From: a virus
Taxonomy: Duplodnaviria > Caudoviricetes
Length of the DNA stretch: 63,039 bases
Reading direction: 5' to 3' (one strand)
IMG/VR virus record: IMGVR_UViG_3300033145_002283
Location: 1-63,039 of that record
The notes under the pieces are model-generated. The model was not told the DNA's origin and searched no databases. It saw only the letters and a list, made by a program, of their open reading frames with translations. Shown here one piece after another: positions 1 to 62,925 of this stretch; within the stretch, counting starts at the first letter, position 1; each line of letters starts with the position of its first letter. A program made the translations under genes and the position numbers.

Positions 1-114
1 ATTTTTCATCTAACAAACGTAATGTTGCAGATGTAACTGCTTTATGAAAAGCAAGCATTATTTCATTTTTGCCCCATCCAGTCTTTTTTGAAATCAAACT
101 TTCAAATTCTTCTT
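1..114. repeat. Terminal direct repeat, copy 1 (circular assembly overlap)
   Basis: Identical to 62926-63039; an ORF reads through the junction. Confidence 0.95.
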
Positions 115-142
115 TAATATATTCTATAAGCTTTTTATTCAT
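1..142 (-). CDS. Hypothetical 49-aa protein spanning the circular junction (continues 62925-62918)
   Basis: ATG at 142 with purine-rich leader; MNKKLIEYIKEEFESLISKKTGWGKNEIMLAFHKAVTSATLRLLDEKSV, stop at 62918-62920. Confidence 0.7.
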   Translation of the reverse strand, partial: MNKKLIEYIKEEFESLISKKTGWGKNEIMLAFHKAVTSATLRLLDEK

Positions 143-349
143 TTCCAGTTCCTTTTCTTTTCTCCTTTATTGTTGTACGTCACGCATTCCAGTAGTTTAC
201 AAAAGCGATAAAACCCTTGCCTTTTGCCCAAAAACGAAACAAAAAACATGCTATTTGGAGTTCGAAAGATATTCCGTTTGCTTTTAGAGAATGTATGGTA
301 AACCCAATTCCAAAACTTCGTACCAAGGCTAAAGTTATTTTGTAGGTTT

Positions 350-535
350 TCATTTTATCGTTGTGCTCTTAACTTTAGTTTTATACTCTGCATTAATTAT
401 GATATTCCCATCACAATTTTTATCAAGGTCTCCCATTAATAGCTGCCTTTCGTCGTTTTCTGTGATTGTATATATTAAAATATTAGTCTCATCAGGCACA
501 TTACTGAGATAGTTTTTTAATTGTATTGCGAGCAT
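350..535 (-). CDS. Hypothetical protein (MLAIQLKNYL...)
   Basis: ORF with AAGGTGG RBS; first 48 nt duplicated at 1230-1277. Confidence 0.6.
   Translation of the reverse strand: MLAIQLKNYLSNVPDETNILIYTITENDERQLLMGDLDKNCDGNIIINAEYKTKVKSTTIK
488..535. repeat. 48-bp perfect direct repeat, copy 1
   Basis: Identical to 1230-1277. Confidence 0.9.
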
Positions 536-609
536 GTAGCCACCTTTATTCAAATTTGCTAAAACATTGTTTTGCCCATTTATCAGATGAACTGTTTTAA
601 TTATATATA

Positions 610-879
610 TTATCCGAATAAAAATAATTCGACACGTTTTCGAACATAAGACACAAGTAAATCAAGCGTTTTGGCTAAATCTGCATATTGTTCATTTGTA
701 GGAAAAACAATGCTTTTTCCTTTGTATTTCGGGTGATGCTGCAAAGTATAATACATATTTCGTCCGTCTACGAACATTTGAGCATGTTGCCTTGCCTCTT
801 GTAAGTTTGATTTCATATTATTGCCTGTTATGAATTTATCCAAATGAAAAACCAGATAACAATGAGTTAAATGCAGCAT
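610..879 (-). CDS. Hypothetical protein (probable start MKSNLQ at ~816)
   Basis: ORF track; co-oriented with arm. Confidence 0.5.
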   Translation of the reverse strand: MLHLTHCYLVFHLDKFITGNNMKSNLQEARQHAQMFVDGRNMYYTLQHHPKYKGKSIVFPTNEQYADLAKTLDLLVSYVRKRVELFLFG

Positions 880-1042
880 AATCTAAGTCTATATAATCAT
901 TAACCCCATCAAAATCTAAAGCTTTACCACAATTTCGAAAATCAACCGGCTTGCCGATGTTCCGCCAGTCGGTCAAAATTACAGCCGTGATAATGATCCC
1001 CGAAATCAATCCGAAAACATAAGTTATTATTGTCAAAATCAT
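836..1042 (-). CDS. Small membrane protein, possibly chimeric
   Basis: N-terminal hydrophobic helix; GAGGGAG RBS; C-terminal ALDFDGVNDYI resembles the start of LamG-like domains. Confidence 0.5.
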   Translation of the reverse strand: MILTIITYVFGLISGIIITAVILTDWRNIGKPVDFRNCGKALDFDGVNDYIDLDYAAFNSLLSGFSFG

Positions 1043-1150
1043 TTCTCCCTCTTTGTAGCCTTGTTATAGCTGATTATTTCAGTAAGTCGCTTGATGAGAT
1101 ATCACTGTGTGTAATTCTCGCACGGGCATTCACCTCCACAGCCAGTCATC

Positions 1151-1174
1151 CGAATTGCAAGATCTTGCAATTCG
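1151..1174. repeat. 24-bp perfect palindrome
   Basis: CGAATTGCAAGATCTTGCAATTCG equals its own reverse complement. Confidence 0.9.
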
Positions 1175-1229
1175 TCTATCATATTGGCTGTGCTCCATTC
1201 AGTTTGTCTGCCAAGTCTTGCGCCACGGC

Positions 1230-1277
1230 CTCATCAGGCACATTACTGAGATAGTTTTTTAATTGTATTGCGAGCAT
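1230..1277. repeat. 48-bp perfect direct repeat, copy 2 (start of a truncated 32-aa ORF, 1179-1277)
   Basis: Identical to 488-535. Confidence 0.9.
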
Positions 1278-1286
1278 AAAATCACT

Positions 1287-1336
1287 TCCTAACAGTCCGT
1301 TATGCGCTACGCCGCCGGTGAGTTTTGGCGTTAGCT
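1287..1336 (+). mobile_element. Degenerate or chimeric integron attC-like site
   Basis: TCCTAAC...GTTAGCT core boxes; right arm CGCCGCCGGTGAG shared with the attC at 62498-62554; left arm does not pair. Confidence 0.55.
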
Positions 1337-1342
1337 GTAATT

Positions 1343-1684
1343 TTAAATTTTTCCTTTCATAATTGAAGGCCTGTATTTACGTAAATAAAATAGATCATAT
1401 TCGCTTGCAACAGACTCATTTAAACAACCAGATTCATCAAAAATAGATAGAGCTATTGTCGGTTGATCAAAATTTTCTATTAATCGAGCGCAAGCATAAA
1501 CAACGCCTTTTGTAAACCCGTTAATATCAATTTTTTTCTGAATTTTAGCTACTTCATCAACAGTTATTTGTTTCAACAAACGTTCTGGAATCATTATCCA
1601 ATCGTCGGCAGCTTTGCATGAATGAAAATATTTATTTGCTTCTTTTTTAATTCGTTCTATCATGATCATGTGTTTTGTATTCAT
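1343..1684 (-). CDS. Hypothetical protein (AT-rich)
   Basis: 113-aa ORF ending just before the attC-like site. Confidence 0.65.
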   Translation of the reverse strand: MNTKHMIMIERIKKEANKYFHSCKAADDWIMIPERLLKQITVDEVAKIQKKIDINGFTKGVVYACARLIENFDQPTIALSIFDESGCLNESVASEYDLFYLRKYRPSIMKGKI

Positions 1685-2034
1685 AATTGATCCTTCCGCT
1701 GTCGGCGTTTTTTAGCCCGGTTTTGGACGAACTCTGATATTTCCTTGTGGTAAGCGTTTTCCGGGATTTCTGCTCTCATGCTTGCGCAGGATATGGCTTT
1801 GAAAAAATCAGCCTTGGCCTGTGCAATAGCAGCAATGATATTTCCGGCCTGCCTGCAGGCCTCCCCGGCCATATTGTCTATAATTGAATTATAGACCCCG
1901 ATAAGGCTATTGTGGTAAGTTGTCCTGCGGTTCCTTGTTTCCTCACCATCTTTGTTGACCCCAATTTTCCACTCATGAAGTTTCCAGCAGAAGGAATCCT
2001 TGTCAATTTCAAAATAGTCATTGATTTTGATCAT
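1681..2034 (-). CDS. Hypothetical phage protein
   Basis: ATGA overlaps with both neighbours. Confidence 0.7.
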   Translation of the reverse strand: MIKINDYFEIDKDSFCWKLHEWKIGVNKDGEETRNRRTTYHNSLIGVYNSIIDNMAGEACRQAGNIIAAIAQAKADFFKAISCASMRAEIPENAYHKEISEFVQNRAKKRRQRKDQL

Positions 2035-25282: not shown

Positions 25283-25996
25283 ATGGCAAATAAAAAACGG
25301 CAACGAACAAAAAATATCCCCAATAAGAAACCTAAGCATACATCCAAGTACCGTACATCAAAAATCCCATATAGAATACGGCATACAGAACCACTGCCGG
25401 ACATAGACCTAAACAATATAGATCAATATGATAAAGAACAGCTCAAACAGGTAATACTGTTGAACAGGGATAAGAACGGTAAACCAACAAAGTGGGGCCG
25501 CCCTACTGATTACAAACCTGAATATGATTATATGGCATATACCCTAATCAAGACCCATGGTATTACTATTGATGAACTGGCTGATGCATTTGGAACAACC
25601 TCTGCCGGGATCAAGAGATGGCGGGATACATACCCAAATTTTAATAATGCCATCATAAAAGGCCGGGACGAATTTGACAATGAACGGGTGAAGAAAACAC
25701 TGCGGGCCAGGGCACTGGGATACGAGTATGAGGAAAAGACGGTCAAGTATAAACGGTTCCCTGTGAAAGATAAAGATGACAAGGTCATCAGATGGGAAAT
25801 GAGACCTGTTGAAAGAACGGTTTACAAGAAAGCAATGCCCCCTGATGTTGGGGCTATTGCATGGTGGCAGAAAAATAGGGACTCGGCCCGCTGGAAAGAC
25901 CGCAAAGCAGTTGAGATTTCCGGGCCTGATGGCCAGCCCATGGAGCATAATGTCCATGTTTATATCCCGGAAAATGGTAGGGAAAAGGATAAATGA
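25283..25996 (+). CDS. terS: Terminase small subunit
   Basis: GRPTDYK, HTH, RALGYEYEE, PDVGAIAWWQKNR; upstream of TerL. Confidence 0.85.
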   Translation: MANKKRQRTKNIPNKKPKHTSKYRTSKIPYRIRHTEPLPDIDLNNIDQYDKEQLKQVILLNRDKNGKPTKWGRPTDYKPEYDYMAYTLIKTHGITIDELADAFGTTSAGIKRWRDTYPNFNNAIIKGRDEFDNERVKKTLRARALGYEYEEKTVKYKRFPVKDKDDKVIRWEMRPVERTVYKKAMPPDVGAIAWWQKNRDSARWKDRKAVEISGPDGQPMEHNVHVYIPENGREKDK

Positions 25997-27375
25997 CAGG
26001 TACAGGAACCATAATCCGGCCACAATCAGGGCCGCAGACGGCTTTTTTGGAAACACCTGCTGATATTGCTTTTTATGGTGGTGCAGCAGGTGGCGGAAAG
26101 ACCTTCGCCCTGTTGATGGAACCATTACGGCATATTCAGAACCCGAAATTTTCTGCTGTCATCTTCCGGCGGGAATCAACACAGGTTACTAATGAGGGTG
26201 GATTGTGGGATACGGCGTCTGAGATATATCCGGGTATCGGAGGCGCCCCAAATGAGAATAAATTGAAGTTCACATTTCCTAAGGGTTCCAGGGTCAGATT
26301 TGCACATTTACAACATGAGAAAAGCAAACATAACTGGCAAGGGGCGCAGGTTCCGTTTTTTGGGTTTGATGAGCTCACCCATTTTACATGGACGCAATTT
26401 ACATATATGTTGTCCAGAAATAGATCAACCTGCGGGGTCGTCCCATATATACGTGCAGGGTGCAATCCTGATCCTGATAGCTGGGTGAGGGATTTCATTG
26501 ACTGGTGGATTGGTGATGATGGTTTTGCTATTGATGAGCGGTCAGGGGTTATCAGATGGTTTATTGTATTGGGCAACGAGGTTATTTGGGCAAACAGTAA
26601 AGGATACCTGATCAAAAAATATGGTAAAGATATTGATGGCGAAGATGAAGCCATACAACCTAAATCGTTCACATTTATCAAATCCAATGTATATGACAAT
26701 AAAATTCTTCTCAAACAGAATCCTGAATACCTGGCAAACCTGATGGCCATGCCCCGGGTTGATCGGGAACGGCTGCTGGGTGGTAATTGGGATATCAGAC
26801 CGGTATCAGGGTTGTTTTTCCAGCGTGCATGGATTGAGATTGTTGATGAGTTACCGCCCAGGGATGAATTGGAAACAATACGGTACTGGGACAGGGCGGC
26901 AACGGAAAAAACTCCTGATAATGATCCATCATGGACGGCGGGAGTAAAACAATCGTATCATGAAACATCCGGGATCACGTTTATTGAACATGTTGAGAAA
27001 TTTCAGGGCACCCCTGCAACGGTCAGGAACAATGTTAAAAACCTGGCTATACAGGATACCGTTAATTGCATTGTAGGGATAGAACAGGACCCCGGCCAGG
27101 CCGGGAAGGCGGAGGCCGAGTCATATTTGGACCTGTTACCCCAGTTCAATGTCAAGATCAATGTTGTCAGAGAGTCCAAGGCCAACCGGGCGAAGCCAGT
27201 ATCCGCCCAGGCTGAACATGGGAGGTTGAAATTGCTGAGAGGCCCGTGGAATAAGGCGTTCCTGGACAAACTGGAATCATTCGATGGTACTGATAAAGGG
27301 CATATGGATGAGGTAGATGCAATGTCCGGTGGATATTATGTGTTGCACAACAAATCAAGGGTGGGGGTATGGTGA
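25993..27375 (+). CDS. terL: Terminase large subunit
   Basis: GGAAGGGKT, FDELTHF, CNP, RYWD, EQDPG, DEVDA. Confidence 0.95.
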   Translation: MTGTGTIIRPQSGPQTAFLETPADIAFYGGAAGGGKTFALLMEPLRHIQNPKFSAVIFRRESTQVTNEGGLWDTASEIYPGIGGAPNENKLKFTFPKGSRVRFAHLQHEKSKHNWQGAQVPFFGFDELTHFTWTQFTYMLSRNRSTCGVVPYIRAGCNPDPDSWVRDFIDWWIGDDGFAIDERSGVIRWFIVLGNEVIWANSKGYLIKKYGKDIDGEDEAIQPKSFTFIKSNVYDNKILLKQNPEYLANLMAMPRVDRERLLGGNWDIRPVSGLFFQRAWIEIVDELPPRDELETIRYWDRAATEKTPDNDPSWTAGVKQSYHETSGITFIEHVEKFQGTPATVRNNVKNLAIQDTVNCIVGIEQDPGQAGKAEAESYLDLLPQFNVKINVVRESKANRAKPVSAQAEHGRLKLLRGPWNKAFLDKLESFDGTDKGHMDEVDAMSGGYYVLHNKSRVGVW

Positions 27376-60999: not shown

Positions 61000-61194
61000 T
61001 TATCTCCCGTGACGCAGAAAATCTTTAAATGCCCGTTCATCAATATACCACCGGCCGCCCACCTTAATTCCAAGGCTGTATTTTTTGGCCCAGGACGTGA
61101 TTGTAGGACGGCTGGGGCGGCCAAGGCCCATGTAAAAGGTTAGATCAATGGCCTTGGTGACCCCTATATATTTTTTGTTTGGATCGATCTTCAT
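61000..61194 (-). CDS. Small excisionase-like HTH protein
   Basis: SRPTI..W, KVGGRWYI. Confidence 0.65.
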   Translation of the reverse strand: MKIDPNKKYIGVTKAIDLTFYMGLGRPSRPTITSWAKKYSLGIKVGGRWYIDERAFKDFLRHGR

Positions 61195-62384
61195 CTGCGC
61201 CGTCTCACCCGCCTTGATTTTTCCTCGGGTTCTGCCTTTGCCTTTCTGGGCCTTCGCCTTGCGGCCGCAGGCCGTTCAGCCTCTTCCTCGTCATCGTCTT
61301 TGTCTTTTTTGGGCCGGCGGCGGGATGTCTTTTTCTTTTCCATTTCATCCTGTTTCTTGGCACAGGCCGTAAAAACATCATCAGGGCAATCCTCACAGGC
61401 CGGATCAGAATCACAGTCAACCCCAAATTCCAATCCAAATGGGCAGTCTTCATCAAACGGAGCATCATCAGCTTTTTCTTCCTCGTCCGGTTCGGGTTTG
61501 GCCTTTGCCTTTCTGGGCCTTCGCCTTGCGGCCGCAGGCCGTTCAGCCTCTTCCTCGTCATTGTCTTCGTTGTCAATATCCAAACCGAGGAACACTGCTG
61601 TAAATTCTTCCGGGGTTGGGACAACGAGCATGGCATCCAGCGGATATGTATCCTCCACAATATCGTCACTGTATGGTTCCCGGTCTTCGAAATCGATTTG
61701 GCTGACCTCAACATACGAGTTGCCGGCCTTGCCAAAATTTTTCTCCCTGCCCTTGAATCGGAGGGTTTTGCCCTCTTCAACATCTGAAAATAGGACAATG
61801 CCGTCTTCGTCATTTTCGGCTTCTTCCAGCAGGGTGGCTTCAAAAAGGTATCTGGAGTAATCCCAGATCTGAATGTCTTTTTCCGGTTCGTTGTAGTCGT
61901 ACACATTATACAGACACCGCCAGGTGGGCTTCAGGGCGTCCAGGACCTTTTCATCCGGATCGTCTTTCTGATATTCAGCGTCACGCTGGGCGCAGGCTTC
62001 GCAAGGCTGACCGAACATTTCCCGCAGGCACAGCATATTTTTCTTTTCCGGGCCGACATTGCGATGGACAGCATACTCAACCTTGTATTCCTCATCCCCG
62101 GACTCAAGACCAACCGGTTTGCCGTTGAATGTTCTGAGCTTGGAATACCATTTCTGGGAAACGACGAACGGTAAGATATCAATCACATTCTTTTTCTTGC
62201 CTGATTGCACCTTGTACATATTGACCTTCCCTTTTTTCCCGGATTTGGAAAGGTCCAGCACATCATTACCACCATACTTGGACACGTCCCGGTTTCTGAC
62301 CGCCCCTTGCGTCCTCCGCTTTAAAGCGGCTCTTCGTTCTTCTTTTGATTTTCTTGCCATAATCTTTACCTCCTTATGTTTCAA
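61191..62384 (-). CDS. T4 gp32-like single-stranded DNA-binding protein (likely start 62360)
   Basis: H..C...C..C zinc site, YNV, DVEEGKTL; acidic tail; next to recA. Confidence 0.7.
   Translation of the reverse strand: MKHKEVKIMARKSKEERRAALKRRTQGAVRNRDVSKYGGNDVLDLSKSGKKGKVNMYKVQSGKKKNVIDILPFVVSQKWYSKLRTFNGKPVGLESGDEEYKVEYAVHRNVGPEKKNMLCLREMFGQPCEACAQRDAEYQKDDPDEKVLDALKPTWRCLYNVYDYNEPEKDIQIWDYSRYLFEATLLEEAENDEDGIVLFSDVEEGKTLRFKGREKNFGKAGNSYVEVSQIDFEDREPYSDDIVEDTYPLDAMLVVPTPEEFTAVFLGLDIDNEDNDEEEAERPAAARRRPRKAKAKPEPDEEEKADDAPFDEDCPFGLEFGVDCDSDPACEDCPDDVFTACAKKQDEMEKKKTSRRRPKKDKDDDEEEAERPAAARRRPRKAKAEPEEKSRRVRRRR
61234..61561. repeat. 61-bp perfect intragenic direct repeat (61234-61294 and 61501-61561)
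   Basis: Encodes DEEEAERPAAARRRPRKAKA twice. Confidence 0.9.
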
Positions 62385-62497
62385 GATTTCTATCTATTGA
62401 CAATGACAATGTTATGCGGGGTTAATGGTAGCTTGCCTCTGTCCTCGGATAGGCTTGGGCGTCTGATTCTACAGATAGCCATTATTTTTCCTTCCCC

Positions 62498-62554
62498 GCA
62501 TAACAATCCACTGCACCGGACGGCTTCGCCGCCGGTGAGCTATGGCCGTTATAC
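62498..62554 (+). mobile_element. Integron attC site (57 bp)
   Basis: GCATAAC-AATCC-ACTGCACC-GGA-CGGC-TTC-GCCG-CC-GGTGAGC-TATGGCC-GTTATAC: paired core boxes, unpaired spacer, two extrahelical bases. Confidence 0.8.
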
Positions 62555-62854
62555 AGCTTCATAGGTTTTTTCGAAAATATCAGGCTTGCAGGGATATACT
62601 TCACCTGCAACACCTTTTATGATGTAGTCGCCAACAGACGCCATATGTGTTCCTTCAAGGGTGAAAATTTTTAAGCCTTCTTTCTTGACAAGTGCTTCGT
62701 ATTCTTCCCAAGAAAAATGCTTGGCTGAATTATTTAACCCTGTAAAATTAATTATTTCTCTAAGGTTTTCCCCCGTCCACTGTATTGCCTCTATCACAAC
62801 AGGACGTTTTTTGTATTTTGCCATCACCAAATCTCCTTTCTTACTGTATAACAA
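62549..62854 (-). CDS. Conserved phage protein (PGDYG-like; likely start 62824) inside a cassette-like unit
   Basis: KKRPVVIEAIQW, TLEG, GDYIIKG..GE.YPCKPDIFEKTY. Confidence 0.8.
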   Translation of the reverse strand: MLYSKKGDLVMAKYKKRPVVIEAIQWTGENLREIINFTGLNNSAKHFSWEEYEALVKKEGLKIFTLEGTHMASVGDYIIKGVAGEVYPCKPDIFEKTYEAV

Positions 62855-62925
62855 TCTGTTTCATTAGTTTTATAAGTTTTGCTCATACTATTACTTTCTC
62901 CAATCATATGAGCTGTATTATACAG

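Follow-up and report, generated by a model that had tools for sequence, protein, structure and literature searches.

An integron attC site in a small, integrase-less cluster of cassette-like units in an environmental tailed phage

How does a phage that encodes no integrase come to carry the recombination site of an integron gene cassette, and by what route might the genes around such a site have arrived? The question is raised by the viral record IMGVR_UViG_3300033145_002283, a DNA of 63,039 bases (the window, by which we mean this whole stretch), in which a hairpin of 57 nt at positions 62498-62554, here called W1, had been read in a preliminary description as an intact attC flanked by cassettes. 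Integrons are usually viewed as devices with which bacteria capture genes, and recent work has found defences against phages in many of their cassettes. The reading that we consider probable is that W1 is an intact attC within a small, partly decayed attC cluster without an integrase, the units of which perhaps entered the phage by way of the integron integrase (IntI) of a host.

The attC site and its bacterial homologues

62498-62554, plus strand: W1, intact attC of 57 nt; bottom-strand fold as in the aadA1 attC; 46.8 bits with covariance model R1 and 26.7 bits with model R2

W1 is composed, in order, of an R'' box (GCATAAC, 62498-62504), a 5-nt spacer (AATCC), an L'' arm with one extra base, a bulged A, a TTC loop, the L' arm, a second spacer and an R' box (GTTATAC, 62548-62554), and the invariant AAC and GTT of the two boxes are both kept. 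Crossover is predicted between G62548 and T62549, and the recombinogenic bottom strand is the minus strand of the window. Each R box departs at one position from the consensus (RYYYAAC and GTTRRRY), the two departures pair with each other, and the R'' variant GCATAAC is also found in the blaVIM-2 and arr-3 attCs. Folded as a single strand, the bottom strand forms an R stem and, past an internal loop, an L stem that is closed by a 3-nt loop and bears an extrahelical T together with a second extra base (-14.1 kcal/mol, z -2.74); the aadA1 attC of plasmid R100, folded likewise, follows the same plan. The hairpin with bulged A and TTC loop that had been reported earlier lies inside 62498-62554 and, given the shared fold plan, the aadA-type layout proposed for it is correct in detail, the attC compared here being that of aadA1 and not aadA7. 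The G+C content (GC) of the site is 0.60, against 0.31-0.40 in its neighbourhood.

Bacterial counterparts were sought with the right half of W1 as the search pattern, scanned over one genome per prokaryote species. The pattern matched 41 bacterial loci, 22 of which (holding 23 sites) contain a full attC with a left arm and both extra bases, none of which was included in the pattern; the other 19 loci are GC-rich coding sequence with nothing attC-like. The left half of the bacterial sites agrees with W1 (R'' ending in TAAC, spacer starting with AA, extra base in L'', bulged A), and the extra bases of W1 share alignment columns with those of the 23 sites. The hosts of this family of attCs of about 72 nt are cyanobacteria, Acidobacteriota, Planctomycetota, Nitrospirota, Verrucomicrobiota, one spirochaete and several proteobacteria. 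Its members are real integron sites, because they form arrays of four to six co-oriented attCs, 300-560 bp apart, at three loci (L023, L050 and L051), and those of L050 lie 1.1-1.5 kb from an IntI gene (457 bits; cut-off 265). IntI scored above the cut-off in three of the five bacterial genomes tested.

A covariance model of the 23 bacterial sites, R1, scored W1 at 46.8 bits (E 4e-11 over 125,273 bases of window and relatives) on the plus strand and at 7.7 bits on the minus strand. It gave just four matches in those 125,273 bases: W1, a near-identical site in locus L010, a weak match at 1287-1336 and a weak second site in L010. R1 works as a general attC detector and is not a mere copy of W1: on a 5-kb stretch of R100 it scored the aadA1 attC at 43.7 bits with the runner-up at 8.7 bits, and it also detects the attCs of blaVIM-2, aadA2, dfrA27 and arr-3. 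The training set of R1 had been found with a phage-derived pattern, and a second model, R2, was therefore built independently from 11 class 1 integron attCs, chosen by annotation from nine plasmid regions. R2 scored W1 at 26.7 bits (E 7.6e-4 over 145,955 bases), its sole match in the window below E 0.1, and it recovers the bacterial family of about 72 nt at 22-56 bits. By virtue of the two covariance models, the full-length homology to bacterial attCs and the aadA1-like architecture, 62498-62554 can be identified from its sequence as a genuine integron attC, and the covariance-model scan bears out the preliminary description on this point.

Two side observations concern the bacterial family. 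The blaVIM-2 attC (L059:4337-4408, minus strand) scores 51.8 bits with R1, its central region resembles the consensus of the family, and it belongs to that environmental group of sites. In Oceanimonas (L026) and Modicisalibacter (L029) nearly the same cassette end is found about 60 nt upstream of the same 72-nt attC, and the two loci hold the same cassette in two genera.

Might W1 be a look-alike, either a palindrome that arose by chance or is peculiar to phages, without relation to integrons, or else the product of an assembly that joined bacterial integron DNA to the phage? With 57 nt it is a short site, neither of its R boxes fits the consensus at every position, and an Rfam scan of the whole window gave no match, a neutral result in that Rfam is not known to hold an attC family. 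Set against this are the full-length alignment of W1 to bona fide attCs, the significant score with the class 1 model R2, the occurrence of the same R'' box in the blaVIM-2 and arr-3 attCs, the phage genes on either side of the site, in a record that has terminal repeats, and the recurrence of the arrangement in four independent viral contigs. A look-alike is, on this evidence, very improbable.

Cassette-like units and decayed sites

62412-62548, plus strand: unit P1, a 137-bp mini-cassette ending in W1, with a 12-nt inverted repeat
62549-62917, plus strand: unit P2, with a 9-nt inverted repeat (62548-62556 / 62844-62852) and an R''-like box
62549-62824, minus strand: PGDYG-family gene, 91 aa from the ATG at 62824 (phrog_419, E 3.5e-34)
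62390-62482, minus strand: possible open reading frame (ORF) of 30 aa inside P1, putative, with a GGAAGGA ribosome-binding motif 7 nt upstream of its ATG

A 5' end complementary to the R'' box of the same unit is expected of a circularisable cassette, and the bona fide aadA2 cassette shows such complementarity over 12 nt. P1 behaves in the same way: its 5' end TTATGCGGGG pairs with CCCCGCATAA, the extended R'' of the unit itself, and TGTTATGCGGGG (62410-62421) makes with CCCCGCATAACA (62494-62505) a perfect inverted repeat of 12 nt, within which fall the complementary ends noted earlier, GTTATGCGGGG (62411-62421) and CCCCGCATAAC (62494-62504). P1 begins with TTRRRY, ends at the G of its own attC and has own-end complementarity of 11-12 nt, as cassettes do. 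P2 starts with TTATACAG, and its R''-like box CTGTATAA is complementary to that start; the pairing previously described between GTTATACAG (62548-62556) and CTGTATAAC (62844-62852) is indeed present as a 9-nt inverted repeat. The motif GTTATRCRG has four copies in the window, all of them within 62411-62852, where 1.02 would be expected (two of 100 shuffles reach four), and the circularised genome has 15 GTTA...TAAC pairs complementary over 8 nt or more, only one of which extends to 11 nt.

The ORFs of P1 and P2 lie on the minus strand, antisense to the attC top strand, as the preliminary description had it, R1 placing the attC on the plus strand. Neither unit thus has the single promoterless ORF on the attC top strand that a cassette would carry; the ORFs are on the bottom strand. 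In the bacterial arrays of the family of about 72 nt the longest ORF of each inter-attC segment is sense in 9 of 13, antisense in two and unclear in two, and because the ORFs of the phage are antisense, unlike those nine, its units are not simply bacterial cassettes dropped into a phage. It follows from this orientation, common to all the genes, that coding strand and recombinogenic bottom strand are one and the same.

The PGDYG gene itself is an ordinary guest of phage genomes in terms of its matches: phrog_419 is a family of unknown function, the DNA matches of the gene fall on phage genes annotated as PGDYG protein, and there are at least 562 relatives in viral contigs. Its TAA stop codon (62549-62551) is the TTA of the W1 R' box read on the other strand. 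The idea that PGDYG genes are habitual cassette cargo was discarded: among the 80 best relatives only those in the viral contigs L070 and L071 have attCs within 1.5 kb, and L069, which holds as close a relative as these two, has none within that distance. The 30-aa ORF has no match in Pfam or PHROG.

Beyond P1 the cluster looks decayed.

62844-62856, plus strand: R''-like box and spacer CTGTATAACAATC, sharing ATAACAATC with the intact site
62917-62925, plus strand: ATTATACAG, an R'-like box and direct repeat of 62549-62556
1287-1336, plus strand: degenerate attC W3 (R1 19.4 bits, E 0.0082 over 125 kb)

The preliminary description had placed a decayed attC at 62844-62925. That claim is not supported, since R1, run over 1.5 kb with its filters off, scores nothing there above 5.8 bits (E 1.4), which is noise, and it detects no attC after P2. 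What can be seen are its two candidate ends. The R''-plus-spacer motif ATAACAATC is identical at 62500-62508 and from 62848, and 62844-62856 is possibly the left end of a lost attC. The box at 62917-62925 reads ATTATAC where the intact site has GTTATAC, an A replacing the invariant G, and it overlaps the stop codon of a 49-aa gene that crosses the terminal repeat of the record. W3 lies about 1.66 kb from W1 round the circle, on the same strand; in a 2.2-kb R1 search with filters off it scored 19.5 bits (E 1.4e-4). It has an R'' box CCTAAC and a right half that follows the family consensus and ends in the R' box GTTAGCT, and its left arm is lost.

The DNA from position 1 to W3 holds small ORFs.

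1-1286, minus strand: small ORFs in an AT-rich accessory region (GC 0.35) lying between W1 and W3
353-535, minus strand: MLAIQLKNYL gene, 61 aa, with a 61%-identical homologue in the attC array of viral contig G006
1179-1277, minus strand: truncated second copy of the start of the MLAIQLKNYL gene, in a direct repeat of 47-48 bp

The direct repeat (47-48 bp; 489-536 and 1231-1277) gives the same N-terminus, MLAIQLKNYLSNVPDE, to a complete ORF of 61 aa and to a truncated one of 32 aa, both on the minus strand. Some 700 bp with two small ORFs lie between its copies, a sign of duplication or insertion within the island. Relatives of the MLAIQLKNYL gene were also considered as attC carriers, and those at loci L150-L152 have no attC.

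The island, its genome and other phage contigs

62926-63039, strand not applicable: direct terminal repeat of 114 bp, identical to 1-114
61191-62384, minus strand: conserved backbone gene of 397 aa that bounds the island (59-75% identical in the relatives L001-L008 and L153-L165)
1343-2034, minus strand: backbone side of the island, with a 117-aa gene (1681-2034) and a 113-aa gene (1343-1684)

The record is that of a complete virus, which closes to 62,925 bp; the last 114 bases repeat the first 114, so that the locus runs on at position 1. The phage is of the tailed double-stranded DNA type. Genes for the large terminase, portal, head proteins and tape measure are on its plus arm, and those for a DnaE-like polymerase, helicases, a RecA-like protein and an exonuclease on its minus arm. 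A search of the complete 63-kb record with the integron-integrase family TIGR02249 gave no candidate, in keeping with the earlier statement that no IntI is encoded. In each of 14 control genomes the same search brought up ordinary tyrosine recombinases with scores under the cut-off, and for this reason the phage appears to lack a tyrosine recombinase of any kind. The large terminase (25993-27372) is at best 49% identical to those of isolate phages, equally of Rhizobium phages and of Methanoculleus archaeal viruses, and the DnaE-like polymerase at best 31-37%, values from which no host can be named; on the terminase matches even the domain of the host is not obvious.

The island extends from the junction of G62411 and T62412 across the terminal repeat to that of G1330 and T1331, about 1.84 kb of AT-rich DNA (GC 0.35-0.40). 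To the left of 62411 lies the upstream region of the 397-aa gene, with neither an attC nor a recognisable attI, and the intI, attI and Pc of a complete integron are not found together here. The relatives join the flanking genes directly: a homologue of the gene at 2031-2579 or of that at 1681-2034 is immediately upstream of the 397-aa gene, the latter (the 117-aa gene) being so placed in L004, L007 and L008, where the 113-aa gene has no match. None of the 24 relatives' loci searched with R1 (nine viral and 15 metagenomic, five of them duplicates) has a match, and the island is absent from them. Because relatives join the flanking genes without the island, the locus can be recognised from these comparisons as an accessory-gene hot spot; it belongs to the early/replication arm, and the cluster that it holds resembles a CALIN (cluster of attC sites lacking an integron integrase, by definition two sites or more within about 4 kb). 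In the flanking protein the relatives reach no more than 75% identity, and between the genes their DNA is too divergent to align, a distance at which breakpoints at the G/TT positions (the slash marks the crossover) are not definable and the comparison speaks for island absence only. As to the bounding 397-aa protein, it has no Pfam or PHROG match, contains a Cys-rich stretch and shows at its C-terminus two copies of an acidic-then-basic segment, DEEEAERPAAARRRPRKAKA.

A two-arm pattern of the attC family led to five further viral contigs. The unrelated contig G006 (GC 0.52, against 0.43 for the window) has in common with the window only the 57-nt attC and the 61-aa gene (61% identity); at its end stand three attCs in one orientation, and the ORFs there are all antisense. 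R boxes and spacers are kept between the two phages, and the second extrahelical base of the bottom strand is C in W1 and G in G006. L054 has a 56-nt attC, again with antisense genes. L070 and L071, which are identical in sequence (the L071 record is 98% complete), hold the closest PGDYG homologues (70% identity), two 56-nt attCs and antisense genes, and the unit between the attCs ends in GTTAGCCA / TGGCTAAC. Short attCs with antisense genes are thus found in four of four independent phage contigs. IntI is absent from nine of nine attC-bearing viral records, one of them 98% complete. Two further details may be recorded: the attC at L070 2324-2379 (minus strand; identical in L071) is almost an aadB/aadA attC of clinical class 1 integrons with an inner stem two pairs shorter, and a tyrosine recombinase of 379 aa encoded in G006 (G006:C1:11521-12009) reaches 50.8 bits with the IntI family, whose cut-off is 265, being an ordinary recombinase and not IntI.

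In L052, L056 and L057 the arrangement is different, a 72-nt attC following a DNA methyltransferase gene in sense orientation. The unit of 1.87 kb comprises a 304-aa ORF, the DNA methyltransferase gene (phrog_67) and the attC. L052 and L056 are 99.95% identical over 184-2054 only, with unrelated flanks, and the edges of the unit fall between G(T/A) and TATGC, which is complementary to its own R'', and inside the R' box GTTAT. Judged by these alignments, the unit is a complete mobile cassette in two unrelated phage contexts, which lends indirect support to movement by IntI.

The constant orientation of the short sites has a bearing on another proposal, namely that the element is kept for a different job, for example as an mRNA hairpin that acts between early genes as a transcription attenuator or as an RNA-stabilising 3' hairpin, with or without activity of an integrase. 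W1 sits in an intergenic gap straight after the PGDYG stop codon and on the transcribed strand, its hairpin is strong, and with genes antisense in 4/4 short-attC phage contigs the mRNA always contains the bottom-strand version; attCs are moreover cited as weak terminators in PMC9892861. Speaking against such a role, no T-run follows the stem on either strand, consensus scans for terminators and promoters at 62498-62554 called nothing on either strand, and the R boxes and spacers, for which a hairpin has no need, are conserved between the window and G006. We judge it quite unlikely. W1 was also rejected as an intrinsic terminator or promoter as such, there being no consensus site and no T-run adjoining the stem, and so was a genome-wide promoter or operator motif: TTGTTATRC with one mismatch is no commoner than chance would have it (42 copies observed against 32 expected), and GTTATRCRG is confined to this locus.

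Routes of entry and comparison with known systems

The probable reading, then, is that of an attC cluster without an integrase. The island would be made up of the 137-bp unit with the intact attC, the PGDYG unit, whose own attC would have decayed to at most its left box, and an AT-rich block of small genes closed by a degenerate attC. These units may have entered, and perhaps been shuffled, through an integron integrase encoded by a host, which would work on the folded bottom strand while the phage infects a cell that carries an integron, either by attC x attC exchange or by insertion at a secondary GWT site. Most of the sites would have decayed since, and the one that remains looks functional. 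Of the interpretation given in the preliminary description, the true attC, the cassette-type ends, the antisense ORFs and the missing integrase are supported, and the decayed attC at 62844-62925 is not.

A number of observations weigh against this reading. There is one intact site only, the third claimed site being at noise level, and W3 is not significant with R2 (14.7 bits, E 0.68) and shows no fold (z -0.33). The R1 score of W1 is partly circular, its training sites having been found with a pattern derived from the phage, and R1 misses six of the 11 class 1 attCs in R2 (aadB, aadA16, DUF1010, aacA4, dfrA5 and aac(6')-29a). The second extrahelical base of the W1 bottom strand is C where G is usual, in a column that is variable among the bacterial sites. 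The 9-nt end complementarity of P2 is unremarkable by itself, because three other GTTA...TAAC pairs in the genome equal it. The antisense ORFs stand against the sense orientation of most bacterial inter-attC segments. Finally, no recombination event is documented for the phage, for which no strain-level relatives were found (protein identity at most 75%), and a public sequencing run, X1, in which 7% of the sampled words occur, yielded neither excision joints nor a contig spanning the locus. On the favourable side, numerous contigs of X1 agree with the window over 62500-62552 alone and part from it at 62500/62501 and at 62551/62553, in the R boxes.

Some of these points feed into an alternative in which the attC is real but passive, the island having been gained from bacterial or other phage DNA by homologous or illegitimate recombination, in the manner of ordinary phage mosaicism, without any action of an integrase, and its sites being decaying fossils that have no role. 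Of the three candidate sites one is intact, the others being degenerate or undetectable; the 47-bp direct repeat (489-536 / 1231-1277) testifies to ordinary recombination within the island; the TTATACAG direct repeats that flank P2 would be left by microhomology-mediated insertion too; and off-target homologous or illegitimate recombination is itself raised in PMC9892861. It is harder to reconcile with the unit edges, which fall on G/TT boxes and are complementary to their own ends, with the methyltransferase cassette of L052 and L056, both of whose edges lie at integrase crossover positions, and with W1, which keeps every structural feature in an AT-rich setting (0.60 against 0.31-0.40 GC). 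We therefore regard passive acquisition as unlikely, and return to entry through a host integrase as the preferred account.

The orientation of the genes invites a further step. The GC skew of the phage flips sign near 24 kb and 50 kb and tracks gene direction; if it reflects replication, the bottom strand of W1 would lie on the lagging-strand template, skew and transcription being confounded in this genome. In Vibrio cholerae, according to PMC13108822, the lagging-template orientation favours attC folding and excision. One might then imagine a phage-adapted lineage of minimal attC cassettes of 56-57 nt, with their genes inverted and the bottom strand on the coding strand and hence on the lagging template, an idea that we put forward tentatively and hold to be doubtful. 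Such a lineage would enable integrase-less and probably virulent phages to trade small accessory genes with phages and bacteria through the integrases of their hosts, and integrons would then be a gene-exchange service for phages too and not for bacteria alone. The presence of attCs in integrase-less phages implies that phages can use the same cassette pool.

How does the site compare with known ones? W1 shares with the aadA1, aadA2 and aadB attCs (R100, L058:13475-13534; L066) a 7-nt R'' ending in TAAC, a 5-nt spacer starting with AAT, an extra base in L'', a G and the bulged A, a short stem, a TTC loop and an R' starting with GTTA. The folds are close, at 57 nt for W1 and 60 nt for the aadA-type attCs, and the differences lie in the stem sequences, in the second extrahelical base (C here, G there), in the 3' spacer (7 nt in W1, 6 nt in the aadA type) and in gene orientation, aadA being sense to its attC whereas the genes of the window are antisense. 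With the environmental family of about 72 nt the R'' box, spacer start, L'', L', 3' spacer and R' align position for position, and the bulged A and the extra base occupy the same columns as in W1; the bacterial sites have a variable terminal region of 19 nt where W1 has a 3-nt loop, and their R boxes are mostly CTAAC / GTTAG, those of the phage ATAAC / GTTAT.

Phages have modular stem-loops of another kind. The PeSL (promoter-early stem-loop) cassettes of T4-type phages are promoter-plus-terminator units that flank hypervariable ORFs and recombine by homology. Like them, the island has repeated stem-loops bordering small accessory genes in a phage hot spot, for which modular shuffling is proposed; unlike them, W1 has no promoter or terminator called at it and is homologous to integron attCs.

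Outside integrons, IntI-mediated insertion of cassettes at non-att sites of bacterial genomes (attG) is described, together with isolated cassettes termed SALINs, by Loot et al. (bioRxiv 10.1101/2022.09.11.507474). The likeness lies in cassettes outside integrons with no integrase nearby, and in a left junction at which the cassette meets ordinary DNA at GWT (G/TT at 62411-62413 in the window, GTT and GAT in L052 and L056); the difference is that the recipient DNA is a bacterial chromosome there, phage targets not being treated in the sections consulted, and would be a phage here.

The closest precedent is the report of attCs, CALINs and integrons in temperate and virulent phages (21 phages, 17 CALINs), where IntI1 recombined five of the six virulent-phage attCs tested (Qi et al. 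2023, PMC9892861). Clusters of attCs in integrase-less phages have thus been known since 2023, and the present phage adds another case; neither it nor its relatives are among the 21 as far as the sections consulted show, and a search of titles and abstract openings for later work gave nothing on this attC family or orientation. As in the phages of Qi et al., there are attCs and cassette-like units, no IntI, several ORFs between attCs and boundary motifs resembling GTTRRRY. There, recombination by IntI1 was shown, whereas the site described here is known from its sequence; here there is one intact site, in a minimal 57-nt form of a family of about 72 nt that spans many phyla, and all genes are antisense. 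What is added is a complete environmental phage whose site is homologous both to that many-phyla family and to the clinical class 1 aadA-type sites, the same 57-nt attC and small gene in common with an unrelated phage, a whole methyltransferase cassette moved between phage contexts with its edges at integrase crossover positions, and a consistent inverted gene orientation at short attCs which, if general, bears on the expression and recombination of cassettes outside integrons.

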